Origin: a virus
IMG/VR virus record: IMGVR_UViG_3300045988_120504
Coordinates: 1-16,154 of that record
Strand: one strand, 5' to 3'
DNA: 16,154 nucleotides
Part shown: positions 1 through 16,154 of the stretch, one piece after another
How the letters are laid out: each line of letters starts with the position of its first letter
Numbering within the stretch: position 1 is the stretch's first letter
Translations under genes and position numbers: made by a program
Notes under the pieces: model-generated
Told to the model about the DNA's origin: nothing
What the model saw: the letters and a program-made list of their open reading frames with translations, nothing else
Database searches by the model: none

Positions 1-135
1 CACAACGCCAAGAACGACACAGCCCACACCTCTCTACACCACAACGCCAAGAACGACACAGCCCACACCTCTCTACACCACAACGCCAAGAACGGCACAG
101 CCCACACACGCACTATACCACAACGCCAAGAACAA
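1..135. repeat. Terminal array of about 3.4 copies of a 39-40-bp direct repeat inside the ITR (unit cacaacgccaagaacgacacagcccacacctctctacac); CA-rich on the 5' strand
   Basis: Copies at 1-39 and 40-78 are identical. The copy at 79-118 is diverged (…gaacggcacagcccacacacgcactatac). A partial fourth copy lies at 119-~135. The array begins at nucleotide 1, the genome end. Confidence 0.9.
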
Positions 136-208
136 CACAATAAAATAATGAACTAAAATCCATAGCATTTACCAATGAATAAAATCCAAACAAATTAAAC
201 CAAAGCAC

Positions 209-237
209 TAGACACAAGCGCCAACGCATGGCATAAT
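209..237 (+). promoter_or_regulatory. Sigma70/sigmaA-like promoter inside the left ITR (-35 TAGACA 209-214, 17-bp spacer, extended -10 TGgCATAAT 229-237), preceded by A-tract-rich DNA at 140-200
   Basis: Close hexamer matches (5/6 and 5/6) with a TG extended -10 and ideal 17-bp spacing. It lies about 45 nt upstream of the 282..557 gene. A GGAG/AGGAAA RBS sits at 268-279. Confidence 0.55.
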
Positions 238-281
238 GTAATTGTTCGGAAGGGAACAGACTTTACGGAGATTTAGGAAAG

Positions 282-557
282 ATGTACACCACTAAGAAAT
301 TTACCATTGCTGAGCTCAAAGCAAAGAACGCAATTTGCCCCGGTACTATCGTTGACGGCTATACATATGTAGTAACGCGCTACTCTGTAGATGCTAGCGA
401 TGATCTTATTCCCGAAGTTTATAAGCAGACTGACATTGCATCGTTTGGCAGTGCAGAAAACGCAGGAGCGTATTGTGTAGCCGCCTACGCACGCGATTTA
501 GATATTAGCAGTGCAATTCAGTACTTCTATAAGGTTCGCGCGGTGGAGGTATACTAA
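282..557 (+). CDS. ITR-encoded hypothetical early protein, 91 aa (copy 1 of 2)
   Basis: ORF directly downstream of the ITR promoter, with an RBS upstream. Its stop overlaps the next gene's ATG (TAATG). An identical copy lies at 15598..15873(-). No motif recognised. Confidence 0.6.
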   Translation: MYTTKKFTIAELKAKNAICPGTIVDGYTYVVTRYSVDASDDLIPEVYKQTDIASFGSAENAGAYCVAAYARDLDISSAIQYFYKVRAVEVY

Positions 558-736
558 TGACCAAGCAACTAATAGCCGCAATAGCCTTTACCCTCCTTTG
601 CTGCCTACTAATGGCGCTAGGCTGGTATGTGGGTGGCATTGTTGGCGGCCTAATCTGGTGCGCTGCCCTCCCCTGCGGAATGATTGGCATTGGGTGGCTG
701 CTAAGCCTGGTAATTAATATGGATGGGTGGTTTTAA
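557..736 (+). CDS. ITR-encoded small membrane protein, 59 aa, two predicted TM helices (MTKQLIAAIAFTLLCCLLMALGWYVGGIVGGLIWCAALPCGMIGIGWLLSLVINMDGWF), copy 1 of 2
   Basis: Not in the ORF track because it is under 60 aa. A strong SD (GGAGGT at 545-550) lies 6 nt before the ATG at 557, and the ATG overlaps the upstream stop. The protein is very hydrophobic with GxxxG-like motifs. The alternative-frame ORFs 511..717(+) and 505..690(-) look like nonsense (R/W/P-rich). Confidence 0.55.
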   Translation: MTKQLIAAIAFTLLCCLLMALGWYVGGIVGGLIWCAALPCGMIGIGWLLSLVINMDGWF

Positions 737-739
737 AAA

Positions 740-1012
740 ATGCAAGAAGTTTGGAAGTTCCATAATCATACAGTCTATTTAATTTGCGAATACGTGAATA
801 AAGGCAATTATGTATTCACGGCAAAACCAGCAGACTTAGATAGTGCTGAAGCCGCTAAAGCGCTAACGAAACTTTCTTTACATTTACGAACTATTGGCCT
901 TACCGATCGTGGAATTTTTAGGGCAATGCCAAAAATCCTAGCAGAAGCGCCAGGCTGGCATTTAGCTAATCAAAAGGTTTGGCAATCTAGTGATGATAGA
1001 TTTAGGTATTAG
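740..1012 (+). CDS. Hypothetical protein, 90 aa; its ATG sits exactly at the ITR/unique-sequence boundary
   Basis: ORF continuing the left-end plus-strand operon. The start ATGC at 740-743 is the last ITR nucleotides. It converges on the ATPase gene, with 21 bp between the two stop codons. Confidence 0.45.
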   Translation: MQEVWKFHNHTVYLICEYVNKGNYVFTAKPADLDSAEAAKALTKLSLHLRTIGLTDRGIFRAMPKILAEAPGWHLANQKVWQSSDDRFRY

Positions 1013-1033
1013 CCTAATAGCGCTAGGTATTAT

Positions 1034-2074
1034 TTAACGTAACCCAAGCATTCGCAACATCTTTAAAAATCCCTCGCGAGTGGCGTTGTTCTCAAACCGA
1101 ACAACGCCGTTACCATATAATCTGCCAATCTGACGTGCAAACTTCCCGGCTGATTCAACCAGGTACATATTTGGCCTATGATCCTCGGTCGTAAGCGAAT
1201 AAACTAAACCACCTTTAGGCGATTTACGATTCACATAAAACAAGCCGTTTGAGTTGTCAAGCCAAACGGCATAAACATTGCCGCAATATTTAAATCCATA
1301 GCGGTATTTTGCGTTAGCAGTTTTCTTTGCAATGAACAAATCATTTGAAGCCGCAAACTCATTATCGATCATGACTTTTTCCAACGCCGTACCGGCAATA
1401 ACCTTGCCCACCAGCGTATCGCGCTCGCTTTGCGCAAATGCAGCGTCTTTAATGTGATGCAAAAGCACTGTTTTATTGTTATGCCAGGAATAGCCAGGCT
1501 TAGGCTCGTCGGTAATGCCAAGCCACAAAAACGCAGGATTGACCAGGTCAACGGCGTTAGATAGTAAATACAGTTGGCAATCGTCACGTTTACGACCAAT
1601 GGTTTTCCATAATTTAAAAAGCTTGCCCATATCGTCGTACAGATAGCCTGGAGGTGTTTTTACCTCTCGAATGTATTCATCAAAAATTAGCCGCTTAACG
1701 CGCGGGTACGCAGTTCCCTTGTAAGTGCCTTGCTTGCTCAACGCGAAGAAGTGGCAACACACTTGCCAATTTGGTTTAGCCTTGCCAGATGGTTTTTTAG
1801 AAATGTAGCCGTGTTCTTTGTCTGTCTTAAAAATATATCCTGGGAATTCCTCATGATCAACAAGGTCATCAAAAAAGTTTGCAGCCGCCTTTTTAAGCTC
1901 GGTTTCGTAGCGGCGAATCCATCCGAATTCTTTACCGCTTTTGATAAATTCCTTTACGCCTTGATACGTAAAACTATAGGTTTTACCAATAGAATTACCA
2001 CCAACGGCAATGGTCATAGGTGCGTTATACGATAACGTCTTTTCCATATATTTTTGCAAATAAAAATCAGCCAT
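1034..2074 (-). CDS. DNA packaging ATPase (phi29 gp16-like encapsidation protein), 346 aa
   Basis: Walker A motif VGGNSIGKT. Motifs WIRRYETELKK, AYPRVKRLIFDEYIRE, LLSNAVDLVNPAFL and YSLTTED align with the phi29 gp16 motifs (IGARGIGKS, YVRRYKPELAK, AYPNVSTIVFDEFIRE, CLSNAVSVVNPYFL, YTLTTDD) as I remember them. The ATG overlaps the upstream stop (TAATG at 2072-2076). Confidence 0.9.
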   Translation of the reverse strand: MADFYLQKYMEKTLSYNAPMTIAVGGNSIGKTYSFTYQGVKEFIKSGKEFGWIRRYETELKKAAANFFDDLVDHEEFPGYIFKTDKEHGYISKKPSGKAKPNWQVCCHFFALSKQGTYKGTAYPRVKRLIFDEYIREVKTPPGYLYDDMGKLFKLWKTIGRKRDDCQLYLLSNAVDLVNPAFLWLGITDEPKPGYSWHNNKTVLLHHIKDAAFAQSERDTLVGKVIAGTALEKVMIDNEFAASNDLFIAKKTANAKYRYGFKYCGNVYAVWLDNSNGLFYVNRKSPKGGLVYSLTTEDHRPNMYLVESAGKFARQIGRLYGNGVVRFENNATREGFLKMLRMLGLR

Positions 2075-3366
2075 TATAGATAACGCCTAATCCACCATGT
2101 ACATTTGTTCGATAAATAATTAGCTGGGTCGGTTTTCAGCCATGGGCCTTTAGGGTGGCTTCCGCCGCCGTGGCCCATGATCTGACCATTGCCCACGTAT
2201 AATTCAACATGCCCAACGCCTGATTCATCCGCTGAACCGCCCCATGATATTAGCACCAGATCGGCTAATTGCATCTTATCAAACGGTAAGTTTTTACCCT
2301 TGCCATGTGTAATTAGAGTTCCTTTGCTGCTCATGTCACCCGTCCAGGTGCCTACATTGATACCAGTAATTTGCTTATAGGCTGCGTAAATTGTAGAGCT
2401 GCAATCCCCTACCCCACTGTTTACCGGGTCGAGCCTTCCCGCGCCTTGCGAATACTGAAATTTACCCTCCCAGGACTTATACAACTCAACAACCTTGCGC
2501 GCGGCATCGCTGCCCGTGTCGTTTCCCTGGTCAGTGGTGGCATTATCGGTGCTGTTGGGATGCCCATTTACATTTGCCGACGGTGCCCAAATGTTAGGCC
2601 CCATTTTTTGGCACACCAAGCCATTAGTAAAGCCAGAAAGGCCAAAAATAACCAATTCGTTATTAACAAGTTGACAATAACTAACTTGGCTGGCTTGCTG
2701 CTCCGATTGTGTAGGGGAATCCCCACCAGATTCAACGTCGCCAACTTGCCCAAAATAAGGCGGCGCACTGTTACCGTCCCAATCCTTTAGCATGTCATAT
2801 GTTCGGTTATAACGGTTCTTGTATTTGCCCAGAACGCCATTATTCAAAACCGTGTTACGCATTGTTTCAAGCGTAGCATTACCGCCGCACGCTCTAAGCA
2901 CCTGACCAGCGCTGCGGGGGCTTTGGTGGTACATGCAAGCAGCAAAAACAAGCGTTTGCGGCCTATCCTGCGATAGACCGAACTTTTCCAGAGCCGGAAC
3001 ATACTCATTTTGAAATTGGTCGAACCATTTTTGTTGCTGCGTTTTATGGTTCGCGTCACGCTTTGCGAACTCTACCCACGCATTAGCTTCGCTATCGGTC
3101 AAATATCGCGAAGTCCACCAATTCCAACTATCTCCGTGCGCATCTACGTCAGCGTCTAATTGAGGGGCCGCCGCTTTAAAAGCGGCGTACCCCTCGGGAT
3201 CACCAGTTCGCAGCATTTTTAGCAGATTTGACGCATTTTGCCCGTATTCCTGCATCATGCCAATGGTGATAGGATCGACGCGGTAAACGCCTCCCCAATT
3301 GTGCTCTGACTCTACCGCGCCAATTACGTACATTGCGTATAATGATGTGTTTGCAAGTGTGGGCAT
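2074..3366 (-). CDS. Tail-associated peptidoglycan hydrolase (phi29 gp13-like morphogenesis/tail lysin): lysozyme-like N-terminal domain plus C-terminal NlpC/P60-type cysteine peptidase, 430 aa
   Basis: The N-terminus GAVESEHNWGG resembles the catalytic-Glu region of the gp13 lysozyme-like domain (GNMQSEST). The C-terminus has GDCSSTIYAAY...HVELYVGNGQIMGHGG, a Cys...His NlpC/P60 signature. It occupies the gp13 position between the fiber and the ATPase. TAATG overlap at 3364-3368. Confidence 0.7.
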   Translation of the reverse strand: MPTLANTSLYAMYVIGAVESEHNWGGVYRVDPITIGMMQEYGQNASNLLKMLRTGDPEGYAAFKAAAPQLDADVDAHGDSWNWWTSRYLTDSEANAWVEFAKRDANHKTQQQKWFDQFQNEYVPALEKFGLSQDRPQTLVFAACMYHQSPRSAGQVLRACGGNATLETMRNTVLNNGVLGKYKNRYNRTYDMLKDWDGNSAPPYFGQVGDVESGGDSPTQSEQQASQVSYCQLVNNELVIFGLSGFTNGLVCQKMGPNIWAPSANVNGHPNSTDNATTDQGNDTGSDAARKVVELYKSWEGKFQYSQGAGRLDPVNSGVGDCSSTIYAAYKQITGINVGTWTGDMSSKGTLITHGKGKNLPFDKMQLADLVLISWGGSADESGVGHVELYVGNGQIMGHGGGSHPKGPWLKTDPANYLSNKCTWWIRRYL

Positions 3367-4136
3367 TAGCTAATTGAGAACGTTGCACTAGCATTACCGT
3401 ATGTAATGCTCTTATCGCCGATGCCGTTACCATCAAGGTAAAGCACACCATCAGTGCCTACGTAAAGGTTGGTTACCCAACTGTTGTTTTGGCAAAAAGC
3501 TTCGCTATTACTGGCAACAGTCCAATACAGTGCTGCGCTTGGAATAGATAGCGCAGTAGTTGGCGCATAGCCCATGTAATACAGTGGGATGCCAGTATTT
3601 TTAGAAGTGCCTGGAATTGTGCGTTTTGCACTTTTCACGGCTGAATTGGCGGCGTAATTATATTGTTTTGTCTCGCGGGTTCCAACAAATCCGTAAAACT
3701 CGCAATGTTTGCCATCATCGCTAACGCGGCATTCTTGTGCAGTTTCTACTGTATCCTTCCAAGGGTTATCGGGGTGAATTGAAGCAGCTTGTAGGTTAAC
3801 AATGCCCTCAAGCGTTTTTACACGTGAAGTTGCTTCGCGCGCTTCGGATAGCGCGCCGTTTGCAGTGGTGTTTGCCGTAGTTGCCGCCGATTTCGCGGTT
3901 GCTGCCGCGGCGCTCGCTGCGTCTGCCGTGCCGCTGGCCTTTACTGCTTCGGTCTGTGCTTCGGTAGCTACCTTATTAGCGTTCGTTACCTGCGTTCGAA
4001 TCGCGGAAATATCCCCCTGCGTTGCAAGCGTTCCCATAGCAGAATCAGCAGCAGTTGCAAGCGAGTTCATATCATTAACAATTGAAATAGGGGATGCGCC
4101 GTTTATAAGTGGCAAATTGAAATTCGGGGTAGGCAT
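3366..4136 (-). CDS. Tail fiber / appendage-like protein with Ala-rich coiled-coil stalk, 256 aa
   Basis: Conserved N-terminal MPTPNFNLPLING, followed by about 100 aa of A/T/S-rich heptad-like sequence (AAAATAKSAATTANTTANGALSEAREATSRVKTLEG). It sits where phi29 has the gp12 appendage. TAATG overlap with the upstream gene at 4134-4138. Confidence 0.45.
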   Translation of the reverse strand: MPTPNFNLPLINGASPISIVNDMNSLATAADSAMGTLATQGDISAIRTQVTNANKVATEAQTEAVKASGTADAASAAAATAKSAATTANTTANGALSEAREATSRVKTLEGIVNLQAASIHPDNPWKDTVETAQECRVSDDGKHCEFYGFVGTRETKQYNYAANSAVKSAKRTIPGTSKNTGIPLYYMGYAPTTALSIPSAALYWTVASNSEAFCQNNSWVTNLYVGTDGVLYLDGNGIGDKSITYGNASATFSIS

Positions 4137-4984
4137 TATAAATTCTCCTTATAACCAAGAACGCCGTTCGCGTCCATTTCACCGTAAGTCGTAAAAATAG
4201 AAGGCGAATAATCATAACCAGGTTCAACATCTTGCATTGCTGCCGCTGGGGTTATTGCGCAGTTCAAAGCGTCATTAAACATTGCAATAAGTGATGCATC
4301 TTTCTTAGCCTTTTCGCACGCGTTTTTAAGAACGAAACGCCCATAAAAGTCAAGCGAGAAATAGCAAATTTCATCAGTAGTCGCGAATTCAGCCGTAACC
4401 ATTCGGCCCACAGCGTCTGGCGCGGGAGCAGGGTAAAGTGTTGCCCGCCCGGTCATTGCACCATCACGGTTTGCAAATGAACCATATGTTAGCCCGTCAA
4501 GATCATTATACGATAGATATTGATCGGTCTGCGCCGTGCCGTGCGCGGTTGCTTCGCCTATACCAAGGTAATCAATATCGGCATATGTTGCCGCGAAGGG
4601 GCGGCACGCGTCAAAAATTTGCCGGAATGCGACCTGGTGATAATCATAACTACCCGTTATAGGATTATGAACCAGGAACAAACCAGCGGTAATATTCTTG
4701 ATCTGCTCTTGCAGGTGGGAATCCCCCGCTTCCCAACCGCTTCGCAAATCGTTGATCTGCCCTTGCAAATCAGCATCAAGCTCGCTAATAGCTTTATTCA
4801 ATTCTTCATCATTAATGCCAGAATCATTTACCGCCATTAGCGCCTGGAGCAGCCAATTAATTTGATCCTCTAACCGGATCGCCCTTTTCCATGAAGGGGG
4901 TAAAGGATACTGAAATCCTTGATATGCAAAGTCTAAACCTGTTAGACCATCGAAAACAGCCATATTAAAATCCCTCATCATCAT
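4136..4984 (-). CDS. Structural protein of unknown function (282 aa from the MMM start; the ATG at 4963 with a GAGGGA SD gives 275 aa and is the more likely start)
   Basis: Long ORF inside the structural gene block, between lower collar and fiber. No motif recognised. The internal ATG at 4963 lies 1 nt after the upstream gene's TAA and is preceded by GAGGGA with a 7-nt spacer. Confidence 0.5.
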   Translation of the reverse strand: MMMRDFNMAVFDGLTGLDFAYQGFQYPLPPSWKRAIRLEDQINWLLQALMAVNDSGINDEELNKAISELDADLQGQINDLRSGWEAGDSHLQEQIKNITAGLFLVHNPITGSYDYHQVAFRQIFDACRPFAATYADIDYLGIGEATAHGTAQTDQYLSYNDLDGLTYGSFANRDGAMTGRATLYPAPAPDAVGRMVTAEFATTDEICYFSLDFYGRFVLKNACEKAKKDASLIAMFNDALNCAITPAAAMQDVEPGYDYSPSIFTTYGEMDANGVLGYKENL

Positions 4985-5537
4985 AGAGTTGATTAAACAA
5001 TGGCTCTAAGCCATTAAATACTAGGTATAGTGCATTGTTAACACCAGTGAGCCACTTTGTCAACACTTCGGCGGCTTGTCCCTGCGTTCCTTTATGTGTG
5101 CTTGTGCTTTTGCCCTGATCAGTCCCCCTCCCCGTGTTATCGGTTAGATTGGTAGCGTAATCTTTAGCGCCTGATAATTGCGCCTGTGGCGTTGCGCTGA
5201 AAATTTGCCGCGCGCTGCTGTTCGATTCAGACGAACTAATGTTCGTATCCTCTGTGCTGTAAGTAGCCATAATATCTAGCTTCTCATTTGCAAGCGCCGC
5301 AAAGATCGGATTAATTACTGGCATCATTTCGCGCATACGCCTATTAAGATAGGCCACAAATAGCGCTGGGGTGTCCTGCGCGATTTTTCGAAACTCGAAA
5401 TGATCATAGATTTTGTTTTGAAGTTCTTCGCGCTCTGATTCATCCCAAATAGGATAAGGTCTAGCTGCGTCCCAAAGGTCATTGCCGTACAAATGTACGA
5501 CATCTCGCAAAGTTGGTGCATCGTCTGCTATTAGCAT
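4965..5537 (-). CDS. Putative lower collar / tail tube protein (gp11 position), about 190 aa (ORF extends to a TTG at 5555; the ATG at 5537 with a GGAGA SD is preferred)
   Basis: Called by position, immediately downstream of the portal in the conserved phi29 order capsid, tail knob, connector, lower collar. No strong motif. Confidence 0.45.
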   Translation of the reverse strand: MLIADDAPTLRDVVHLYGNDLWDAARPYPIWDESEREELQNKIYDHFEFRKIAQDTPALFVAYLNRRMREMMPVINPIFAALANEKLDIMATYSTEDTNISSSESNSSARQIFSATPQAQLSGAKDYATNLTDNTGRGTDQGKSTSTHKGTQGQAAEVLTKWLTGVNNALYLVFNGLEPLFNQLYDDEGF

Positions 5538-5541
5538 TGTT

Positions 5542-6525
5542 TTATTCTCCGTCAATATCTTTATTAGGCATTACTTCGGGCGCTTCTGCTTCGCGCAAAT
5601 GCGGTACTGACCACGATACATCAATAGGCGCGTCGAGGTAATCAGCAAAAACAACGTTAGCCACTTTGCAAAATTCTTTTCGGCACTTTAGGCGCGAATT
5701 GCGCATCAACATAACCTGTTCGTTATTAGATAAAACTTCCTGGGTATTGACGCGCTCGCGCTTATCGGTATTGGCATTGTCAGCGCCTAAAAACGTGATC
5801 GCTTCATCGAGTATACGCTTTTTAGCATCAAGCAATTTATCAGCGACAAAAGGCGCGTTAGTGTTTAGTACCTCATAGTTTACAATGTCAGTCATTCCGC
5901 TATTTTGGCTGATGAACTGCTTATTGTTTTTAAGGTCCTTTATAATGCCCTTTTTGGTCGCTTTTGCTTCTTCTGGTCCGGTAATGATCCATGGCGTTTT
6001 TTGCGCCCCAACATTAATATCAATAGTGCGGTCAATTGCTGCAAGGCGCTTTGCATAATTGCTGATGAATCCGCTTAGCGGCGTTCGCATCATATTATCG
6101 AAAAGCATAACGGCATCGCGTGGCATCACTTCATTTTCTGCGTTGACCCAAAAATTACAATGGCGCTGCCAATACTGGCCTGCTGGCGAAAACAGGTTGA
6201 TTTTATTTGGATTGTAAAACATGTTGATGTTTTCAGCTGGTGCGGCTTGCGCAAAAAGAACGCCGCCGCTTTCTGTAAATAAAGCGCCCATCCCATAGTA
6301 AAGTAGGATATATTCAATAGCGCGTGGATCAATGCCAGCTGGTACGTTTTCCCAGGTAAAGCCAGCAATTGCGATGTTTTCTAGGTACGTGCGCCAAAAA
6401 CGATACTGCAATTGGTCATATGCCTGTGCACTGTCTAGCAGTTCGCGAACATGTTTTTTTCCTAGCATCAACTCTGATTCATCAATCCATACGGATTGCG
6501 CATAGTCTGGTAAGCTAGTGCTCAT
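5542..6525 (-). CDS. Head-tail connector / portal protein (phi29 gp10-like upper collar), 327 aa
   Basis: [21 protein letters not shown] aligns with gp10 [34 protein letters not shown] aligns with [33 protein letters not shown] aligns with [22 protein letters not shown]. TAATG overlap with the tail knob gene at 6523-6527. Confidence 0.85.
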   Translation of the reverse strand: [327 protein letters not shown]

Positions 6526-8585
6526 TATTTCACCTCTCTATCGTATCCATAAATCCCTTGAATAGGTGCGTTATCCGCTCCGTAGGTACGTCCTATATCT
6601 CCAGGGTTTCGCCACACGGTAACGCCTTTTTCAAAAATGCCGCGAATAGCATTTTTAACGCCCTCATCAGCAGTGGAGCAGATAATAGACGTATCAAGCA
6701 TCTTCCAATACGTGTATTTTTCCATGCACATAAAGTCTTTTTGTGGCACTAGGTATTGGCGAATCGCATAGCCGTATTTCAGAAAGTAGTTACCCACAAT
6801 TTCCTGCATCTGTGTGGTAATCGTTTTATATCTGATCTGTACGATCATCATACCATTTGAAAGATTAAAACCGTCTCCCGCCATCTGCCCCGATTGGCTC
6901 GGCTGCGTCAGCGCGGCATCCTGAACCGTGGCATCAATTCCAGCGACGGCGTTTTGATAATCGCCCTTGGCTGCCCAGTCTGATAAATTTTTGTTCTGGT
7001 CAGCAAATTGCCCAGCTAGTTGCTGGTTATTTTGGAACTGCAAATTAGACGCAACTAAATTAGTAGCTCCACCGGCAACGCCCATTAGAACACCTGCGGG
7101 GTTTCCAGCCATACCACTAGAAAGCGCAGACAGACCCATATTAATGCCTTGCTGTATGTTGCTAATAGACTGGTTAGCCTGGTTGTTAGCTAGCTGTTGT
7201 TGTGCCTGGTCATACGTCAATTGATTACCCGCTAAGCTTTTTTGCTGCGACCATCCAGCGGCATTGTAGCTAAATTGGCGGCGGTTGGTTGTGCTTGCTA
7301 GATAATTAACGTACTCATCATTAACGATTGACATTTGCGGAAAGGATTGAAACCAGATAGCCGCATCGAGCCAATAGCCGTAGTTAACTTCATGAGTTTT
7401 TTCGGAATATTGCCCCTCGGTGTAGTCCATTGTATAATAGCCGGCTTTTCCGTAGCCAGAATCGCCACCCGCTTCGCCGTAATGCGCAGGGAAAAAAGCA
7501 ATTTTCTGGTATGGCGGTGCAGCGCAAGCCATTTGCTTTAACGTCAATTTTTTATCATTTACCATTTCAGGCTTTAGCAATAAAGAATTGCCTTGGTAAT
7601 TAACAATTTCAATAACAGAGTAAGGAAAGCATTTTAGCTTATCTACGAATTTAAAATCATCGTTCGTAAGTCTGTCGAGCTGGTCTAGAATTGGCTCGTC
7701 AGAAGTAAAATACACGCCCTCGTCTGGAGTATCGCCTAAAAAGTGCGCATCAATGCCGTTTAGTGACACACTGGGGCCATCAGTCAGAACTGTTTTTGGG
7801 AATGCAGAAATAGAAACGATCCCTTTTGCCACCCACGGAGCATCGCGAACTTTTTTCATAAATTCCGAATAATCCCACGATTCAATAGCGTAGACGTTGC
7901 AACCGCTTGCTAGTCCGTCAGTCATTTGACCATCAGCAGTTTTAAGCGATGGATTATCGCGTGTCCCCCAATCGGCTGCAAGGTCGGTATTGCTTTGTAC
8001 GATAACAGCCCATTTTTTGGCGCTCAAATCGAACATTTCAGCTCGCGAAATGGTGTACTCGCTACCAACGTCCAGCCCTTCGCTTGCAACGCCAAATATG
8101 CGCATTGTCTCGGCAGTATTGTATTTTCCTGATTCCAATCGGTTATGCATTGCAGCCATTGCCAAATGCCCACGCTCAACAAAGCAAACACCCAAACGGA
8201 ATTGCCATAAATATGTTTGGAAAACGTCAAGCTGCAAAGTAAGTGCGGTAGTGGACGGATTCAGCATAGCCGCGCCTTCAATAAAGTAATAGAAGCGCGG
8301 CGGAGTTACATCGTCGGGATCATCAGTTTTAGGATTATCGACAATTAGATAATTATAGGTATAAGCCATGTGGAAAGGAACATCAATATTGATAGGCTCA
8401 TTTGGTTTCAAATAGGTGTAATTATCTAAAACGATTGATTCACTTTTAAGTGAGTCAAAATATTCGTTTCGCTTCTCAGGCGATTCAAAAGAAACAACAT
8501 CCTTATATGAATCGTCCCACGCAACGCGGCAAAGCGTTACGCGGGACTGAATCGCCCAACTAAACGGAGTTACGTTAGTTGGCAT
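6525..8585 (-). CDS. Tail knob / distal tube protein (phi29 gp9-like), about 686 aa; ATG at 8585 preferred over GTG at 8594
   Basis: The N-terminal layout (…RVAWDDSYKDVVSFESPEKRNEYF…YLIVDN…FYYFIEGAAM) parallels the gp9 N-terminus (RILADVPFSNDYKNTRWF…YIMFQNADYGNKWFYAF). It contains a long Q/N/G-rich, partly hydrophobic insert like the membrane-active gp9 loop. It sits in the gp9 position after the capsid gene. An AGGGAGA SD lies 9 nt before the 8585 ATG. Confidence 0.7.
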   Translation of the reverse strand: MPTNVTPFSWAIQSRVTLCRVAWDDSYKDVVSFESPEKRNEYFDSLKSESIVLDNYTYLKPNEPINIDVPFHMAYTYNYLIVDNPKTDDPDDVTPPRFYYFIEGAAMLNPSTTALTLQLDVFQTYLWQFRLGVCFVERGHLAMAAMHNRLESGKYNTAETMRIFGVASEGLDVGSEYTISRAEMFDLSAKKWAVIVQSNTDLAADWGTRDNPSLKTADGQMTDGLASGCNVYAIESWDYSEFMKKVRDAPWVAKGIVSISAFPKTVLTDGPSVSLNGIDAHFLGDTPDEGVYFTSDEPILDQLDRLTNDDFKFVDKLKCFPYSVIEIVNYQGNSLLLKPEMVNDKKLTLKQMACAAPPYQKIAFFPAHYGEAGGDSGYGKAGYYTMDYTEGQYSEKTHEVNYGYWLDAAIWFQSFPQMSIVNDEYVNYLASTTNRRQFSYNAAGWSQQKSLAGNQLTYDQAQQQLANNQANQSISNIQQGINMGLSALSSGMAGNPAGVLMGVAGGATNLVASNLQFQNNQQLAGQFADQNKNLSDWAAKGDYQNAVAGIDATVQDAALTQPSQSGQMAGDGFNLSNGMMIVQIRYKTITTQMQEIVGNYFLKYGYAIRQYLVPQKDFMCMEKYTYWKMLDTSIICSTADEGVKNAIRGIFEKGVTVWRNPGDIGRTYGADNAPIQGIYGYDREVK

Positions 8586-8599
8586 ATTTAGCACTCTCC

Positions 8600-9982
8600 C
8601 TAGGCTTTAGCTGCAAGGACAATGTTAGCAGACTTCTTATTATCAGCATTCGAAATTGCCGTAACCGTGATACTGGCATACTTGCTATTTTCGGAAATGT
8701 GCAAAACTCCCATACGGTCGATATAAGTACCAGTGTCAGGAAGTACAACATTCCAAACGCCTGTCTTCGCGTCTTCTACAGTCTGACCAGTGATAATAGT
8801 ATACGCGCGACCGTCAGTAGACAAATCAGAATATTTTACCACGGTATCAAGCGCGATTTCTGCGCCAGGTTCAACCACCTTGTTTTCTGCCACGGGATCA
8901 TGCAATGTAACGGTAACCGTGGTAACCGTTCGAGCGGGAGCCGCCGTGATATTGCTCTCCTCTGTAGTAGACAGAAGCAAGGCATTACGCATTGGCGAAG
9001 CACTGTACACGCCCCAATGGTGGTAGTAATAATCAAGGTCAAGCGTAGCAGGATTATAGATAGAAGCGCTCTTAATTTTGGTATCAGTGCAAACATAAAA
9101 ATCACGATCAAGCAATGCAACATCTACGCCAGGGATATTGAAATCATCAATAACAACGGTTCGATCAGCAATAAAGTTTGCCTTATCCATGTTGAAAGCA
9201 GCAGCCAAAACGGACACGTCGAAGTTTGCAAAGAAACGGGGAGTGCCCATAAGCACCAGCTCATCGCTCGTAACCTGCATACCAGCGTTGTTATAACGCG
9301 TGTTATAGAAGTTTTTCATCTGCAAATAGTGCTCGCGAAGTGCTGCCGCAATTCCCTCACCAGCAACGCGCTTATCGTCTGCCGTAATACTATTGTCGAA
9401 CATATCGGGCACGCGAACGGTAGCCATTCCCTCACTGTCGTGAACCTTGCGCAAAATATCGCGCATGATCAGGTATTCGTCGTTTTCGTCTGACTGCTGC
9501 GGGAGTGCAAGCAAACTATTTATAAATGCGGAAAGTTGGCCATCCTGCACGAAAGCCTCTTCGAGCATATCCTCATTAAGTCGCAGATCGTAGCGATCGC
9601 GGCGATTAACGCTGTGGTAAATAGCCTTTACGTCTGGTTTTTCTGCCCCAAATACGTTTGTGTCGTTAGGGTCATATGCCTTAGCTTTAATTAGATTTGC
9701 CCCGATTTCCTGGACAATGCCGCCATAGGCCATTGCACCAGTTTTGAACGGCTTCAAGCGATTTTCGAATGAATTCGTTCTGAAAAGCGTAAGGCCGATA
9801 CGCTGGACAAGCACCTGAATGAACTCATTCCAAAGAAGAGAATTTTCTTGCAAAAGTGCGAGCGTCTTAGTCAAATTGTTATCAGTAATCTCGGGAATAC
9901 GCGCGCGATACTGCTCACTGGCATTGTTTCGCACTGCATTAATAATTGCGGCGTTGGTTGCCGCGACCTTGCTAGCTGCCAT
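8600..9982 (-). CDS. Major capsid protein (phi29 gp8-like) with C-terminal Big2-like Ig domain, 460 aa
   Basis: Size is close to gp8 (448 aa) and it immediately follows the scaffold gene. The C-terminal about 100 aa (TVTVTLHDPVAENKVVEPGAEIALDTVVKYSDLSTDGRAYTIITGQTV…ITVTAISN) reads like a BIG2 beta-sandwich, as in phi29 gp8. Strong SD AAGGAGA. Confidence 0.8.
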   Translation of the reverse strand: MAASKVAATNAAIINAVRNNASEQYRARIPEITDNNLTKTLALLQENSLLWNEFIQVLVQRIGLTLFRTNSFENRLKPFKTGAMAYGGIVQEIGANLIKAKAYDPNDTNVFGAEKPDVKAIYHSVNRRDRYDLRLNEDMLEEAFVQDGQLSAFINSLLALPQQSDENDEYLIMRDILRKVHDSEGMATVRVPDMFDNSITADDKRVAGEGIAAALREHYLQMKNFYNTRYNNAGMQVTSDELVLMGTPRFFANFDVSVLAAAFNMDKANFIADRTVVIDDFNIPGVDVALLDRDFYVCTDTKIKSASIYNPATLDLDYYYHHWGVYSASPMRNALLLSTTEESNITAAPARTVTTVTVTLHDPVAENKVVEPGAEIALDTVVKYSDLSTDGRAYTIITGQTVEDAKTGVWNVVLPDTGTYIDRMGVLHISENSKYASITVTAISNADNKKSANIVLAAKA

Positions 9983-9984
9983 TA

Positions 9985-10278
9985 TTAATTCTCCTTATCT
10001 GCGAAAAGATCATCAATGGACTTCTCTGCAATTTCTTCCTGCGATTCTTCGGATTCGCCGCCATCGTCAGGCGCGGGAGCAGTTGCGGCAACCATCAGCT
10101 CATAATTTCGTGCGGCAACTTCCTGATATTTGTGCTCGGCTTCGGTAAGCTTTTCCTCAAGTTCGGAAAGTCTGGCCTGCATTCCTGCCGAAAGATCGGC
10201 CACGCCCTGGGACACACCAGCACGCCATTCGGACAAATCTTCAATTTCGTCCATTGCAAGAAATTCATCTAGCGTCAT
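9985..10278 (-). CDS. Scaffolding protein (phi29 gp7-like), 97 aa, acidic helical/coiled-coil
   Basis: 97 aa (gp7 is 98 aa), highly acidic with heptad-like LSELEEKLTEAEHKYQEVAARNYEL. It lies directly upstream of the capsid gene. SD AAGGAGG. Confidence 0.6.
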   Translation of the reverse strand: MTLDEFLAMDEIEDLSEWRAGVSQGVADLSAGMQARLSELEEKLTEAEHKYQEVAARNYELMVAATAPAPDDGGESEESQEEIAEKSIDDLFADKEN

Positions 10279-10302
10279 TGGTTTTCCTCCTTATAAAAAT
10301 AT

Positions 10303-10340
10303 CCCCTGGTCTATAGCCTTTAGGCATGACCAGGGGATTT
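10303..10340 (-). terminator. Rho-independent terminator on the minus strand downstream of the endolysin (9-bp GC-rich stem cccctggtc/gaccagggg, loop with an inner mini-hairpin, then a U-run from rc …gaccaggggatattttta)
   Basis: The inverted repeat is seen directly. On the minus strand the stem is followed by AUAUUUUUAU and then the scaffold RBS AAGGAGG. Confidence 0.55.
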
Positions 10341-11886: not shown

Positions 11887-13632
11887 TTATCTAATCGAGA
11901 ATGGTCTCGGCACAAGTATAACGCCGCCTTTAACTGCTTGTGGTACGATTTTCCACCTAGATTTATCACGGTAAATTTCAGGCACATTTTCACATTTTTC
12001 AAAATCCGTGGTAAAGCCAGGGTGAAAATCCTCAATCCTCATAATCTGCTTAAGCGGTTCAACCATTCCCGCGCAAGTGTACGCCCACGGTTTGACGATC
12101 AAATTACCGTTTTTGTCGTGAGTGTATTCCGCTTCTGCATATGTTTTTGCGCGTAAGCAAACGCAGTCCGCAAATGCCGCTTCCAAATCCCAATAGCCTA
12201 GTTTTTTAGAATCAATAAGAATATCGCTCGGTATTTCTGATCCAATAAAATGTATTGAATCGGTGTCGGAATAGATAAACCGATCGCCAAATTTTAGCGC
12301 CGTCCTAATAGTGTAATCACGCGCCCACGCAGTTACAAAAATTCCGACTGGCAAATATACTGGTCTACGCTCTGTTTCCTCACCCATAACGTAATGTACA
12401 ATACCATCAGAATCAAGGCGTGGCACCTTGCCACGCACTTTAATTTTTTGCGCGTATTTTCCATATGCGTTATTTAGCCACAGTTTCCAATTCATGCGTT
12501 CACCTGGGCTTTTAGCGTTCATTTTGCCTACCATACCAGCATCAACATACTCTTTGAAAAGGCCAGTAACTCCGCGAAAATAGTACGTAGCGCCGTATGC
12601 TATTACGTCTACCGCATAGCACTCATTTATCAATGCCCAATCAACATTGGTGAGCATCATCGTAATAGGCTCGTCTATATCGGTCTGATATTCGCGAGCA
12701 TTAAAAAATAGACTTCCTTTTACCTGAATGCAAGGCAATTTTCCGTTTTTCAAATGCGCCGAAAAGGTTATTTCACTTATCCATAGGGGATATTTTTCAC
12801 TTTTTATAGGCTTACCAGGTTGCAAAAGTGGCTTACCTACCGGTAAGCATCTATCATGCATTACAAATGGGTATAAGCTATTTACATCAATTCGCCCACC
12901 TTCGCCTAAATGTTTATTTACATGCCTAGGGTTTGCGAACACGTAGCCACCTCGGTATGCTTTGCGCAGTATTGAATCTAGCTCGCTATCAAGCTCGGGA
13001 AACTTCACGCGCCATTGGCGTTTACCGAATAGGTCTTTTAATGCCGCTAAGCAGTCTGCACCAGTGGTTAGTTTTTCGCCCAAGTCGAATCGGTGATCAA
13101 GCGCTTTAGCCAGAATCAAAACATCACGGCGAAGATAATCCAATTCAAGAGCGGTCAAAATATGCCCTGGTTCACGGTAGGCGTTATAGTCTATTTCGCC
13201 TTTGGTCATTTCCAGCCCATACGCTCCTGCTACATTTGCGAGCGTCATAGGTAGTTTTTTATAGCTGTCTGCAATTTCAAAAGTAGAACATTCGTTCATA
13301 ATTTGCATATGGTAGAACTTGCCTAAACTATCCATCAACAAGGTAAATTCTCCAGCGCCTGGCTCGCGTTCCTCGGTATGCTTATAGCCATTTATTAGCA
13401 GCCACGAAATTATGAATTTAGTATCAAAGCCAGCGTTATGAAACCAATAGCGGCCTGGATGATCAAACGCCCAATTCATAAATGATTCTATGCTAGTCCC
13501 ATATTCAAATAGGCCATCGGTATTAGCGCCAACCGGGGCAACTCCCCATGCCCATACGGGATTGACTGCGCAACCCTCCGCGCTCGTGTTGGTTTCAAAA
13601 TCTGCCGAATATTCAATAACAGACTGTTTCAT
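11887..13632 (-). CDS. Protein-primed family-B DNA polymerase (phi29 gp2-like), 581 aa
   Basis: Exo I YSADFETNT (phi29 YSCDFETTT). Exo II FHNAGFDTKFIISWL. Exo III YLRRDVLILAKAL. Motif A DVNSLYPFVMH. Motif B KLWLNNAYGKY. Motif C YSDTDSIHF. KxY LRAKTY. ATGA overlap with the terminal protein gene. Confidence 0.95.
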   Translation of the reverse strand: MKQSVIEYSADFETNTSAEGCAVNPVWAWGVAPVGANTDGLFEYGTSIESFMNWAFDHPGRYWFHNAGFDTKFIISWLLINGYKHTEEREPGAGEFTLLMDSLGKFYHMQIMNECSTFEIADSYKKLPMTLANVAGAYGLEMTKGEIDYNAYREPGHILTALELDYLRRDVLILAKALDHRFDLGEKLTTGADCLAALKDLFGKRQWRVKFPELDSELDSILRKAYRGGYVFANPRHVNKHLGEGGRIDVNSLYPFVMHDRCLPVGKPLLQPGKPIKSEKYPLWISEITFSAHLKNGKLPCIQVKGSLFFNAREYQTDIDEPITMMLTNVDWALINECYAVDVIAYGATYYFRGVTGLFKEYVDAGMVGKMNAKSPGERMNWKLWLNNAYGKYAQKIKVRGKVPRLDSDGIVHYVMGEETERRPVYLPVGIFVTAWARDYTIRTALKFGDRFIYSDTDSIHFIGSEIPSDILIDSKKLGYWDLEAAFADCVCLRAKTYAEAEYTHDKNGNLIVKPWAYTCAGMVEPLKQIMRIEDFHPGFTTDFEKCENVPEIYRDKSRWKIVPQAVKGGVILVPRPFSIR

Positions 13633-14438
13633 TTTCCGATAAATTGCAAAAGTTCTTTTAGTGCGGTTTCGTTTGCAGTTGATTCTTCATCGGTGGGGGA
13701 GCGGTAACCCTTCTCGTATTCAGCTTCATACTGCCACGTATCTACGACTACGCTAAAATCAGTGTAATAATGCAGATAAGCTAGCTCGTCTGTGGTAAGT
13801 TCGCCTATTCTATCTAACACAGATTCAGATATGCCGTTTTCTTTTAACTTGTTAATGACAGCCTGTCTGTAATGCGTTAGTCTATCAATGCCAAGCGCAG
13901 ACGTAACGCGCAGCTTAATAGCCGCGTAAGTTGATTTTGCGCCTGGTTTAAATTCCGTTTCACGAATTACGGGCTTTATGGCACTAAAGCGCCCGTCATC
14001 CACGGCGTATTCCATGGGCGATTCTACATAATCAATGTTGCGCACTTGTGAATCAGGAATATTAGCCAAAACAGATTCGCGAATGCCTGTCAATTTAGCC
14101 GCATTCTCCGACCTAATAACGTTTAATTCAGCTTCTTCCAGACGCCGTTGCCATAATTCAGTGCTCATAATTGGCGTTCCCTCGCGCTGGATTACAACCT
14201 CGGTACCACGGTTAAAAGTGTATGCGTTTTCACGTGCGTTAAATTCGCGCAACTTCTGCGCATACTGTCGTTTTTCAACCGCACTCATACCTTTTAGCTC
14301 GGCAGCGGGAATAACTGGATTAAATGCGGCTGAAATTTGCGCATTGATTGCACCTTTTTTGCGCAAGCGGTATAATTTGTTACGGGCATTCTTTTGCAAG
14401 CGCGAAACTTCTTTGTCTAACTCGGTTCGCTTCTTCAT
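13629..14438 (-). CDS. Terminal protein (phi29 gp3-like), about 269 aa (track ORF extends to 14477; the ATG at 14438 after TTAGGAGGGGCA is preferred)
   Basis: Called by position, immediately 5' of and overlapping the protein-primed polymerase gene, as gp3-gp2 in phi29. The size matches the 266-aa TP. The genome has ITRs. Basic N-terminal region and a Ser/Thr/Tyr-rich C-terminal region. No direct motif match available. Confidence 0.65.
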   Translation of the reverse strand: MKKRTELDKEVSRLQKNARNKLYRLRKKGAINAQISAAFNPVIPAAELKGMSAVEKRQYAQKLREFNARENAYTFNRGTEVVIQREGTPIMSTELWQRRLEEAELNVIRSENAAKLTGIRESVLANIPDSQVRNIDYVESPMEYAVDDGRFSAIKPVIRETEFKPGAKSTYAAIKLRVTSALGIDRLTHYRQAVINKLKENGISESVLDRIGELTTDELAYLHYYTDFSVVVDTWQYEAEYEKGYRSPTDEESTANETALKELLQFIGK

Positions 14439-14455
14439 TGCCCCTCCTAATCTCC

Positions 14456-14510
14456 TGCCCCTCATCATGAGGGGCATTCTTTTAACAAAAAGGGCGGCAT
14501 AAATGCCGCC
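14456..14510 (-). terminator. Intrinsic terminator (gggcggca-uuua-ugccgccc plus U5) on the minus strand after the SSB gene, then a perfect 9-bp inverted repeat gcccctcat(c)atgaggggc overlapping the TP upstream region
   Basis: Both palindromes are seen directly at 14483-14510 and 14456-14474. The T-run follows the first hairpin in the minus-strand direction. Confidence 0.55.
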
Positions 14511-14528: not shown

Positions 14529-14960
14529 TTAGCCGATAAGCTTAAAAGTAAGCATGGAACCAAGGCGAACCTTACGAATAATAATCTCAATAGTTGCGGG
14601 GTTGTCCGCGTCAATTACTGGCCGAATTGCCTTCAAGCGCTGCAACGCCTGGTAAAGGCCAACGGACTGCGCTTCATACGTTGCACCGTCTGCGTCTGTA
14701 ATGACAATATGCGGGCGGTTTTCCAGCTCGCCAGTGAGCTGGTTAACGGCTTCAATCGGCTCAACGAGCCATGCAGTCATAACAATAGTTTTGCCCGCAA
14801 AATCAGAAAGCTTGTAATCAGATGCAACCCCGGCATTGAAAGCCGCAATCTGGCCTGCTTCGGTAGACAGATCATAGGATGCAGCAAACCCATAATTTGC
14901 GTTACCGGTAGCGATTTCGGTTACTTCCGCGTTTGCAATTTCCATGTTTTCCATTTTCAT
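14529..14960 (-). CDS. Single-stranded DNA-binding protein, phi29 p5-like, 143 aa
   Basis: Segments STEAGQIAAFNAG, HIVITDADGATYEAQSVGLY and ATIEIIIRKVRLGSMLTFKLIG align with p5 TETLEGQIKIFNAQ, TVTTIFAADGSLYSAISKTV and LETFKVKVVQGTSSKGNVFFSLQL, as I remember the p5 sequence. It sits one gene upstream of TP, the conserved p6-p5-(p4)-TP-pol order. SD AAGGAGA. Confidence 0.5.
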   Translation of the reverse strand: MKMENMEIANAEVTEIATGNANYGFAASYDLSTEAGQIAAFNAGVASDYKLSDFAGKTIVMTAWLVEPIEAVNQLTGELENRPHIVITDADGATYEAQSVGLYQALQRLKAIRPVIDADNPATIEIIIRKVRLGSMLTFKLIG

Positions 14961-14966: not shown

Positions 14967-15224
14967 TTAATCAATTTCTTTTGAATCAAAACATTTTGCA
15001 GATGAATAGAATTCATCTAGTGGCATAACATATACCTTGCTAACCTGCTTAGGGCGCTGGATCGAAATATCTTCTCCAAATTCCTTAACAGCCAAGTTGA
15101 AAATACGTGCCATGCCAGCGGCGGCAGGGTATTCACGTGTGGCGATCTTTTTACCGTTGCGGCAAATGTCGCAAGTGGTAACGTTTTTAGTGCGCCACAC
15201 GTGTTTAGCCTTTGTTACATGCAA
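14967..15224 (-). CDS. Putative dsDNA-binding protein, phi29 p6-like, 85 aa, TTG start
   Basis: Weak similarity to p6 as remembered (RTKNVTT… vs REITKTTVNV; KVYVMPLDEFYSSA vs ERYSMDLETFLKHA). It is basic and lies directly upstream of the p5-like gene. A strong AAGGAGGTGA SD sits 8 nt before TTG. The in-frame ATG one codon downstream is followed immediately by a stop. Confidence 0.4.
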   Translation of the reverse strand: MHVTKAKHVWRTKNVTTCDICRNGKKIATREYPAAAGMARIFNLAVKEFGEDISIQRPKQVSKVYVMPLDEFYSSAKCFDSKEID

Positions 15225-15415
15225 TTTTGGTCACCTCCTTTAGGCTCGGTTCGCTCTAGTTCCTTTATCTCTTCAGCGATTATGTAAATCAAATCGCGTA
15301 AAGATTCTACATAGTGCCTACCTAAATAGGTAGCGCCGTTATCTGCTTCGATCGCTATTTGATAGCAATCAAGCTGTTTGAGGTAATGCACTGATAGTGC
15401 TGTTACTCTTGGCAT
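15215..15415 (-). CDS. Small acidic early protein, 66 aa, unknown function; its ATG sits exactly at the right ITR boundary
   Basis: ORF starting with ATGC at the last ITR nucleotides (15412-15415). Net charge about -4. No motif. Confidence 0.4.
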   Translation of the reverse strand: MPRVTALSVHYLKQLDCYQIAIEADNGATYLGRHYVESLRDLIYIIAEEIKELERTEPKGGDQNCM

Positions 15416-15418
15416 TTT

Positions 15419-15598
15419 TTAAAACCACCCATCCATATTAATTACCAGGCTTAGCAGCCACCCAATGCCAATCATTCCGCAGGGGAGGGCAGCGCACCAG
15501 ATTAGGCCGCCAACAATGCCACCCACATACCAGCCTAGCGCCATTAGTAGGCAGCAAAGGAGGGTAAAGGCTATTGCGGCTATTAGTTGCTTGGTCAT
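15419..15598 (-). CDS. ITR-encoded 59-aa two-TM membrane protein (copy 2 of 2)
   Basis: Exact mirror of 557..736. Confidence 0.55.
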   Translation of the reverse strand: MTKQLIAAIAFTLLCCLLMALGWYVGGIVGGLIWCAALPCGMIGIGWLLSLVINMDGWF

Positions 15599-15873
15599 TA
15601 GTATACCTCCACCGCGCGAACCTTATAGAAGTACTGAATTGCACTGCTAATATCTAAATCGCGTGCGTAGGCGGCTACACAATACGCTCCTGCGTTTTCT
15701 GCACTGCCAAACGATGCAATGTCAGTCTGCTTATAAACTTCGGGAATAAGATCATCGCTAGCATCTACAGAGTAGCGCGTTACTACATATGTATAGCCGT
15801 CAACGATAGTACCGGGGCAAATTGCGTTCTTTGCTTTGAGCTCAGCAATGGTAAATTTCTTAGTGGTGTACAT
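15598..15873 (-). CDS. ITR-encoded hypothetical early protein, 91 aa (copy 2 of 2)
   Basis: Translation identical to 282..557(+). Confidence 0.6.
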   Translation of the reverse strand: MYTTKKFTIAELKAKNAICPGTIVDGYTYVVTRYSVDASDDLIPEVYKQTDIASFGSAENAGAYCVAAYARDLDISSAIQYFYKVRAVEVY

Positions 15874-15917
15874 CTTTCCTAAATCTCCGTAAAGTCTGTT
15901 CCCTTCCGAACAATTAC

Positions 15918-15946
15918 ATTATGCCATGCGTTGGCGCTTGTGTCTA
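15918..15946 (-). promoter_or_regulatory. Mirror copy of the ITR promoter, directing inward (minus-strand) transcription of the right-end early operon
   Basis: Reverse complement of 209..237 (tgtcta at 15941-15946, attatg at 15918-15923). All downstream genes from 15873 down to 1034 are on the minus strand. Confidence 0.55.
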
Positions 15947-16019
15947 GTGCTTTGGTTTAATTTGTTTGGATTTTATTCATTGGTAAATGCTATGGATTTT
16001 AGTTCATTATTTTATTGTG

Positions 16020-16154
16020 TTGTTCTTGGCGTTGTGGTATAGTGCGTGTGTGGGCTGTGCCGTTCTTGGCGTTGTGGTGTAGAGAGGTGTGGGCTGTGTC
16101 GTTCTTGGCGTTGTGGTGTAGAGAGGTGTGGGCTGTGTCGTTCTTGGCGTTGTG
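16020..16154. repeat. Mirror copy of the terminal 39-bp tandem repeats (right end)
   Basis: Reverse complement of 1..135. The sequence 16020-16154 reads ggtgtagagaggtgtgggctgtgtcgttcttggcgttgtg twice, plus the diverged copy. Confidence 0.9.

Follow-up and report, generated by a model that had tools for sequence, protein, structure and literature searches.

The window analyzed here is the whole of a 16,154-bp stretch of viral DNA (positions 1 to 16,154 of the IMG/VR record IMGVR_UViG_3300045988_120504), a phi29-like protein-primed podophage genome with nearly all genes on the minus strand. From the right end, the genome encodes small open reading frames (ORFs), an 85-aa ORF, a single-stranded DNA-binding protein (SSB), a 282-aa ORF, the DNA polymerase, holin and endolysin, followed by the major head protein, the tail knob, the upper collar, and a gp16-type ATPase. 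Each end carries one copy of an inverted terminal repeat (ITR), in which a tandem array of 39/40-bp units is followed inward by an A-rich block, a predicted early promoter, and two small genes (Table 1). Metagenomes of the human gut are the source of its close relatives and of the other assemblies of this phage. A first-pass annotation of this DNA had interpreted the array as candidate origin-binding iterons at the extreme termini and the 5'-CACAAC start as a possible site of dinucleotide jump-back initiation. Comparison with the other assemblies and the relatives indicates that the array is instead a polymorphic subterminal minisatellite and that the outer end of the ITR is missing from the window.

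The array in the inverted terminal repeats

Tandem Repeats Finder identified a 39-bp unit in 3.5 copies (93% matches, score 234) at positions 1-139 and 16016-16154, in two ITR copies that are 100% identical over 750 bp. The tandem repeats that had been described at both ends of the contig were thereby borne out. Their strand asymmetry was borne out as well: the top strand of the array (1-139) is composed of A 38.8%, C 43.9%, G 11.5%, and T 5.8%, or about 83% C+A at a G+C content of 55%, and the A/C/G/T proportions of the whole genome are 26/24/21/28%. Every family member, the distant ones included, is depleted of G on the 5'-ended strand (4-14% G; positions 1-208 of the window and the terminal 200 nt of L125, L126, L127, L148, L163, and L176), and the terminal 200 nt are therefore predicted to be almost unstructured as single strands. 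As single-stranded DNA (ssDNA), they gave minimum free energies between -2.5 and -9.4 kcal/mol in all family members. The mean for internal windows (n = 580) was -24.1 +/- 5.6 kcal/mol, and none of them (0/580) was weaker than the terminal values. C-to-T deamination of the displaced strand was considered as a cause of the composition and rejected by reasoning, because the long-displaced 5' strand is C-rich and T-poor, the opposite of what would be expected. In IMG/VR, a 26-mer from the repeat unit had no match, and a 15-mer gave random single matches only, among the matches listed.

Position of the genome ends

An exact lookup of the 91-aa product of the first ITR gene retrieved five short ITR-only contigs from other assemblies (L163 to L167), among which L163 is an independent MEGAHIT contig assembled with k=119. 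All five match the window over the 613 nt past the array with 0 or 1 mismatch, and L163 with 0 mismatches. The array begins at nucleotide 1 in the contig only, contrary to the extreme termini of the first-pass annotation: L163 reaches 98 nt beyond nucleotide 1 of the window, reading GTAATACTATGGCTTACCCCACTTTCCCCCAAACCGTTCGCGCCTGAACGTTCATGACCGACACTTTGTCACAC, then a partial unit and then the array, and L164 and L165 reach 48 and 45 nt farther out, still within the array. No part of the terminal 74 nt of L163 was found in the window, and this segment shows 79-86% identity to the contig ends of the relatives 126105, 145071, and L175.

The terminal segment of L163 carries a CCACTTTCCCCCAAACC box common to close and distant relatives. 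In the L163 layout the box has the form CCACTT(T/C)CCCCCAAACC, 11-23 nt from contig ends, and across the relatives it follows the pattern C[CA]ACTT(N0-4)CCCCCAAA, again 11-23 nt from the contig end. It occurs at both ends of 126105, 141537, and 180339 and at one end of 145071, L163, and L175; two of the box-bearing genomes are distant relatives (ATPase 41% identical), with the box at both their ends. The box is present in every contig without an array. The contigs that start inside an array lack it, namely the window, L164-L167, 104897, 130525, L145, L176, L183, and L184, and the terminal segment has been assembled only for the lineage of the window (L163) and for array-free genomes. No 12-mer (0) is common to the array unit and the terminal segment, and we saw no sign of a back-up origin. 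The conserved terminal segment with its box probably forms the real origin of the gut clade.

The start of the window itself appears to reflect assembly. Positions 40-94 are an exact copy of its first 55 nt, and in the relative 104897 the opening 55 nt are likewise repeated without change at 101-155. L166 and L167 share with the window both the start at CACAACGCC and the whole opening 55-mer, and base 56 is the A/G position separating the unit types. A shared start of this kind would be expected at a branch vertex of a de Bruijn graph built with k=55, and the window would lack the first 98 nt because the assembler stopped at the repeated 55-mer. Three relatives have "ITRs" of exactly 99 nt, a typical assembler k. 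Other assemblies of the same phage consist of a 14.7-14.9-kb central contig and a separate ITR contig of 0.74-0.84 kb, the ITR forming a separate 2x node, and the identity of the two ITR copies in the window may come from one collapsed graph node used twice.

We are therefore confident that the array is subterminal and that the ends of the window are truncated. The assembled contigs place the array about 75-240 nt inside the real end and mark the "CACA" at the start of the window as an assembly boundary, not as an end at which replication starts. An internal array and trimmed ends, as found here, are what the first-pass annotation had named as speaking against its own model. The real terminus may lie about 18-25 nt upstream of CCACTTTCCCCC in an L163-type end.

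The model in which the array occupies the physical termini as origin-binding iterons, with the terminal protein (TP) linked to dCMP at the internal G of 3'-GTGT and a 2-nt jump back, could draw on the start at CACAACGCC shared by three contigs, on the symmetry of the contig to the last base, and on the presence of a gene with the p6 fold. The shared start is, however, exactly the 55-mer before the polymorphic base, and symmetry is expected if one ITR graph node was used twice. L163, L164, and L165 reach 45-98 nt beyond that start, the conserved terminal box of the relatives and L163 is absent from the window, and CACA is weak evidence in a region of 83% C+A. Both known mechanisms, sliding back and jumping back, require the template to be reiterated at its physical 3' end (PMC5175343). 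The jump-back proposed for the 5'-CACAAC sequence has lost its basis in the sequence because this physical end is absent from the window, and we consider the whole model very improbable.

The longest contig ends in the clade read GTGTAG, ATGTAC, and TGTAG (RTGTA... type) and GTAATA, and the record of Actinomyces phage Av-1 reads TGTGTC. None of them begins with AAA, unlike phi29, GA-1, and Cp-1. A few terminal bases may be missing from all of these contigs, but the true ends of this branch might start with a non-A reiteration, (R)TGT..., as the Av-1 record does (TGTGT), and the initiating nucleotide might then not be dAMP, unlike in the studied phages of the phi29 family.

Variability and origin of the array

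In array-free genomes the distance between the contig end and the -35 hexamer is only 182-188 nt, which indicates that the array is an insertion into a short linker. The six assemblies of the same ITR hold from three to five or more units in differing orders, with no fixed number or spacing: A-A-B in the window, A-B-C in L163, A-A'-B-B in L164, A*-A'-B-C in L165, A-B-B-C in L166, and A-B-B in L167. Copy number and unit order depend on the assembly, and the contig end is set by the assembler, as would be expected if the repeats were a pure assembly artefact absent from the virus. Against this, six independent contigs from several samples and assemblers carry three to five units each, and they include contigs assembled with k=119 and k=127, at which one k-mer spans about three units. 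The distinct variant tails (A, A', B, C) cannot come from a collapsed loop. We give the artefact hardly any credence.

Relatives whose polymerases are 93-95% identical carry unrelated arrays or none, just outward of the same A-rich block, which is kept in all relatives, unlike the array. The unrelated arrays comprise units of 25 bp x 11, 45 bp x 3.6, 75 bp x 2.2, and about 11-12 bp x 11, as well as other C-rich repeats. The array is missing from 126105, 145071, and L175, yet the gene set is the same, and the first gene of L175 is 91% identical. The array of L145 consists of a duplicated 75-nt unit whose homologue is single-copy in 126105, which shows directly how such arrays arise. A single-copy homologue of the linker behind the 39-nt unit is likewise visible in 126105 and 145071. 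We found no sign that the type of array varies along with the first ITR gene, the p6-like protein, SSB, or the polymerase.

From these comparisons the array appears as a polymorphic, fast-evolving, and lineage-specific minisatellite without conserved iterons, and it is quite likely not a sequence-specific iteron set. The iterons of the first-pass annotation, taken as conserved sequence-specific sites, do not accord with a copy number and order that vary and with relatives that carry unrelated arrays or none. True iterons might still exist in a subterminal position, as lineage-specific sites for a co-evolving phage or host factor that tunes the origin or the early promoter. Arrays recur independently in many lineages, always outward of the same A-rich block, and candidate factors are variable among relatives, such as the 66-aa early protein (44-93% identity) and the putative TP (78-92%). 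Yet three genomes lack the array with the same gene set, unit order and number vary within one phage, the first ITR gene and the p6-like protein do not co-vary with array type, and no DNA-binding family was detected in the variable small proteins. We regard such iterons as improbable.

The variable copy number would also suit a telomere-like protective buffer, in which a G/T-rich 3'-ending strand with Chi-like or decoy motifs (GGGCTG, GCTGG) protects the end or the array absorbs erosion. The polarity matches that of telomeres and Chi, with the G-rich strand 3' toward the end, and motifs of the CAGCCC/CCAGC type were noted in otherwise unrelated arrays, those of the window (22-27 and the repeats), 104897, 117268, L145, L183, and L184. 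The ends of protein-primed genomes are, however, capped by the terminal protein, and the motif is absent from 130525 and from distant relatives. The chance that the array acts as such a buffer seems to us small.

As a separate observation, the spacers of some genomes show a 5-nt periodicity relative to shuffled sequences (126105, L126 1-115, z=4.1; L175, 1-110, z=3.1; 117268, L136 reverse strand 1-135, z=12.3), and many array periods are multiples of 5 (25, 40, 45, 75, 10/15/20). A universal 5-nt periodicity of the spacers was not adopted, being missing in 145071, 141537, and 180339.

The p6-like protein and the A-rich block

Homologues of the 85-aa basic protein encoded at the head of the early operon were found only in this clade, and it gave no BLASTP, Pfam, or PHROG match to p6. 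Its AlphaFold2 model (predicted local distance difference test score, pLDDT, 79.6) has the order strand-strand-helix-strand-helix (E-E-H-E-H). The sole significant match in the PDB is 8pw4_A, phi29 p6 (E 6e-4, probability 1.0, template-modelling score, TM, 0.46), and in BFVD the best matches, reaching a TM of 0.60, are to the dsDNA-binding/p6 proteins from phi29-like phages of Bacillus. The p6 fold, with the succession beta1, beta-hairpin, beta3, alpha1, beta4, alpha2, was described as novel (PMC10899789), and the predicted model agrees with it. An hhalign comparison with p6 was weak (probability 2.4%) but collinear. It pairs Y69/F76/A80 with Y65/F72/A76 and V59 with I55, and p6 Y69, F76, A80, and V59 belong, with G37 and A44, to the conserved residues whose roles have been described (PMC10899789). 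A glycine stands directly before helix 1 of the 85-aa protein, like G37 of p6 (PMC10899789). The predicted fold and the position upstream of SSB support a p6-like protein; the p6-like gene of the first-pass annotation is thus retained on the predicted fold and not on sequence similarity. If the model is right, the p6 fold extends to very distant, non-Bacillus relatives.

What p6 recognizes is bendability and not sequence. Its contacts with the A/T-rich minor groove recur at intervals of 12 bp, or of 11 bp for GA-1, and its nucleation zones lie 46-68 and 62-125 nt from the phi29 ends; it opens these ends and acts as a repressor of the end-proximal promoter C2 (PMC4974454, PMC10899789). The array zone, about 75-240 nt from the real end, overlaps the phi29 nucleation zone of 46-125 nt (PMC4974454). 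The p6-like protein is 92-99% identical across genomes with unrelated arrays or none, and in view of this array turnover it cannot read the 39-bp unit specifically. The 39/40-bp period corresponds to 3.3 p6 steps and is not a natural register. A common array period fitting the p6 register was also rejected, the periods across lineages being 39/40, 25, 45, 75, about 11-12, and 10-20 bp. The idea of a periodic binder on the 39-bp units therefore survives as far as the array lies within a p6-type zone, and fails in that the unit is not specifically suited to a p6-type binder.

By analogy with phi29, the A-rich block is a better candidate for nucleation than the array with its 55% G+C, and it is a candidate UP-like element and/or p6-type nucleation site. 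The first-pass annotation had described phased A-tracts at 140-200. The A-richness was confirmed, and the phasing was not: the A3-4 tracts are centred at 143.5, 156.5, 182.5, 189, 193, 198, and 203, with spacings of 13, 26, 6.5, 4, 5, and 5 nt that fit no 10.5-bp register, and helical phasing was rejected on these spacings. As to whether the region is coated by the p6-like protein, we are tentative and somewhat more doubtful than confident.

Other features and gene content

The protein-primed family B DNA polymerase is 38-40% identical to those of GA-1, Av-1, and other phi29-like phages over 99-100% of its length. For its structure and packaging the phage has a phi29-type module of major head protein, tail knob, upper collar, and gp16 ATPase, with PHROG matches at E 1e-56 to 1e-89 and the ATPase recorded as PF05894 Podovirus_Gp16. 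The best identity to any phage record is at most 40% for the polymerase and at most 34% for the capsid protein, with values between about 32% (capsid) and 40% (polymerase) for the closest isolates. At the nucleotide level, neither the whole window nor the ITR matched any of 50,697 phage records.

Table 1. Features of the window and of the related contig ends used for comparison. Positions refer to the window unless a contig or phage is named.
Feature	Position	Strand	Remarks
Left ITR as assembled	1..750	+	100% identical to 15405-16154; outer end truncated
Array, left ITR copy	1..139	+	Units 1-39 = 40-78, 40-nt variant 79-118, partial unit 119-139
A-rich block (55% A)	140..208	+	Adjoins the -35 hexamer upstream; mirror copy 15947-16015
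Predicted sigma-70-type early promoter, inward-reading	209..237	+	TAGACA-17 nt-CATAAT, extended -10 TG
First ITR gene (91 aa)	282..557	+	No known family; served to retrieve independent ITR assemblies
ITR gene, hydrophobic (membrane-type) protein (59 aa)	557..736	+	Second copy 15419-15598 (-)
Holin ORF (PF05105)	11511-12035	-	Listed from a TTG start; overlaps the polymerase 3' end by about 150 nt
Family B DNA polymerase, protein-primed phi29 type	11887..13632	-	phrog_1907, E 1.8e-126, full length
Putative TP (282 aa)	13629..14477	-	By position only, between SSB and polymerase as in Av-1/phi29
SSB, phi29 type	14529..14960	-	PF17427, E 5e-7
Basic protein (85 aa, isoelectric point 9.3)	14967..15224	-	Directly upstream of SSB; predicted phi29 p6 (histone-like dsDNA-binding) fold
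Early protein (66 aa)	15215..15415	-	
Right ITR as assembled	15405..16154	-	750 bp, mirror of left copy
Promoter, mirror copy	15918-15946	-	Predicted to drive the whole early operon on the minus strand
Array, right ITR copy	16016..16154	-	Mirror image of left array
L163, outer part	L163 nt 1-74; 75-237; then about 70 nt		Conserved terminal segment; array; A-rich block
L163, inner part	L163 nt 307; 380		-35 hexamer; first gene start
Terminal box, gut clade contigs	L163:19-35; L126:19-33; L148:17-34; L156:15-32; L175:11-25		
Similar box, known phages	phi29 right end nt 27-36; Cp-1 28-40; Pize 18-27		phi29 on the reverse strand
IMG/VR contigs with exact 99-nt ITR	L120/L133, L121/L134, L123/L129		

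The promoter hexamers are conserved with minor variation in the relatives (e.g., TAGACA / TATATT). The 59-aa protein is hydrophobic over almost its whole length and, being encoded in the ITR, has two gene copies per genome downstream of the end-proximal early promoter. Its one likeness to membrane-anchored early proteins such as phi29 p16.7 is that of position; it showed no homology to them, and its exact sequence is absent from the records searched. The putative TP had no Pfam or PHROG match and no significant similarity to the TP of Av-1. Among the relatives this protein and the 66-aa early protein, at the identities given above, vary much more than the polymerase (93-95%), SSB (90-97%), or the p6-like protein. 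The TP is most alike in those genomes whose terminal segment resembles that of L163 (126105, 92%; L145, 89%), which hints that TP and origin sequence might co-vary.

An Rfam scan of the whole window found no packaging RNA (pRNA) or other RNA family at E <= 1, apart from a weak match to isrG (E 0.28) that was dismissed. Genes for a gp16-type ATPase and an upper collar are nevertheless present, and a pRNA, if there is one, is too divergent for the Rfam model. The true start of the holin ORF is probably farther downstream than the listed one.

Discussion

We consider it likely that each ITR of this phage contains a polymorphic subterminal minisatellite, that the origin resides in the terminal segment, and that the role of the array is generic. 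Slippage or unequal exchange would have duplicated 39 nt of the short linker that separates the origin segment from the A-rich block, and the array would keep expanding, contracting, and reshuffling. Other lineages would have expanded unrelated units at an apparently equivalent position, inward of the contig end and outward of the A-rich block. The origin proper would be the conserved terminal segment, recognized by the complex of TP and polymerase. The sequence of the array itself would be no specific binding site and might act as a generic spacer or platform between the origin and the early promoter, with the spacer DNA and the A-rich block probably coated by the p6-fold protein. The two-letter composition (C+A / G+T) would leave the displaced strands almost free of secondary structure, and the two ends would be kept alike by the usual maintenance of ITRs.

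Several points weigh against this interpretation. The physical end is placed where independent contigs stop, and not by pile-ups of read starts, and a few terminal nucleotides may still be missing from the contigs. The value k=55 comes from exact 55-nt coincidences rather than from the assembler settings of the window, and L163 is the only contig that joins the 39/40-bp array to the terminal segment. The p6 assignment is a predicted model from a shallow alignment (pLDDT 79.6, TM 0.46-0.60). Arrays have arisen independently in at least six lineages, each outward of the same A-rich block, and this recurrence could reflect selection for repeats or for length instead of neutral slippage. We do not call the array simply neutral because arrays recur independently beside the same conserved block. 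A role for a periodic binder cannot be dismissed for the arrays of about 11-12, 24, and 25 bp, which are near the p6 register of 11-12/24 bp.

Conceivably, selection has made the G-depleted subterminal spacer and its minisatellites into a telomere-like module of the clade, one that tunes the length of a p6-type filament and thereby couples the opening of the origin to the shut-off of the early promoter. Slippage during protein-primed replication would alter the arrays, which would be homogenized between the two ends. We think this unlikely; if it were true, no regulatory array that lies close to an origin and varies in length would have been described before in a protein-primed phage.

The likely subterminal minisatellite has practical implications. 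A contig with a perfect ITR can still lack its real ends if the ITR holds tandem repeats, and the chemistry of replication initiation must not be read from such contig ends. Completeness calls made through the ITR are artefactual for the IMG/VR contigs of this clade that have 99-nt ITRs or start at a repeated 55-mer, and these contigs lack their real ITRs and ends. The clade also offers a near-isogenic series of genomes differing mainly in the minisatellite, in which the dependence of the origin on sequence as against spacing or composition is testable.

Comparison with known systems

The window phage resembles phi29 and Cp-1 in its linear genome with a phi29-type polymerase and SSB and a TP gene placed by position only, and it resembles phi29 in having a p6-fold gene directly upstream of SSB and an end-proximal early promoter like C2. 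A box of the form CCA(N1-5)TT(T)CCCC is found 11-30 nt from the ends in the gut clade, at the right end of phi29, in Cp-1, at both ends of Pize, and at the right end of Anjali. Elsewhere it occurs only 1-4 times per 17-20-kb genome in phi29, Cp-1, Pize, and Anjali (0.002-0.007 matches/70 nt), and it may belong to the elements that origins of the phi29 family have widely in common. The ITR of the window phage is at least 750 bp long, whereas those of phi29 and Cp-1 are 6 bp and 236 bp. Unlike phi29 and Cp-1, the window phage has a polymorphic minisatellite between the origin segment and the promoter. Tandem Repeats Finder detected no comparable array at the ends of phi29, Av-1, Pize, Anjali, and CH17P1, and only an imperfect 94-bp x2 repeat at the ends of Cp-1. 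Unlike phi29 p6, the p6-like protein is basic and has no long acidic tail.

Actinomyces phage Av-1 (Dybvigvirus) shares the order of end, non-coding leader of about 200 nt, promoter, small ORFs, SSB, TP, and polymerase, continuing with head, tail, collar, ATPase, and inward-reading small ORFs at the other end. Its polymerase is 39% identical, and its ends carry a C-run (TGTGTCTGTGCCCCCCTTTG). The Av-1 leader differs in that it is not G-depleted (G 26%) and has no tandem array, and the ITR of Av-1 is imperfect and only about 50-200 nt long. The right end of phi29 is as free of predicted ssDNA structure as the ends of the gut clade, whereas the left end of phi29 is not and the Av-1 leader has ordinary predicted structure.

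The likeness to the jumping-back of adenovirus and Bam35 is one of class only, protein-primed replication that needs a terminal reiteration (PMC5175343), and in the window the CACA marks an assembly boundary instead of a physical end. Iterons of plasmids and phages (RepA-type) are similar as direct repeats near an origin. They are conserved together with their cognate initiator, whereas the units of the window phage are not conserved and no cognate specific binder is evident. The repeat sets in poxvirus ITRs and the mitochondrial telomeres of Tetrahymena are also lineage-specific, variable arrays inside a conserved terminal element, alike at both ends. Those ends are maintained by hairpins or recombination and not by protein priming, and the analogy is one of form only. 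The element as a whole falls into an established category, that of ITR and origin regions in protein-primed phages of the phi29 type that have a p6-type accessory protein, and the subterminal minisatellite is its one unusual feature, probably a non-essential one.

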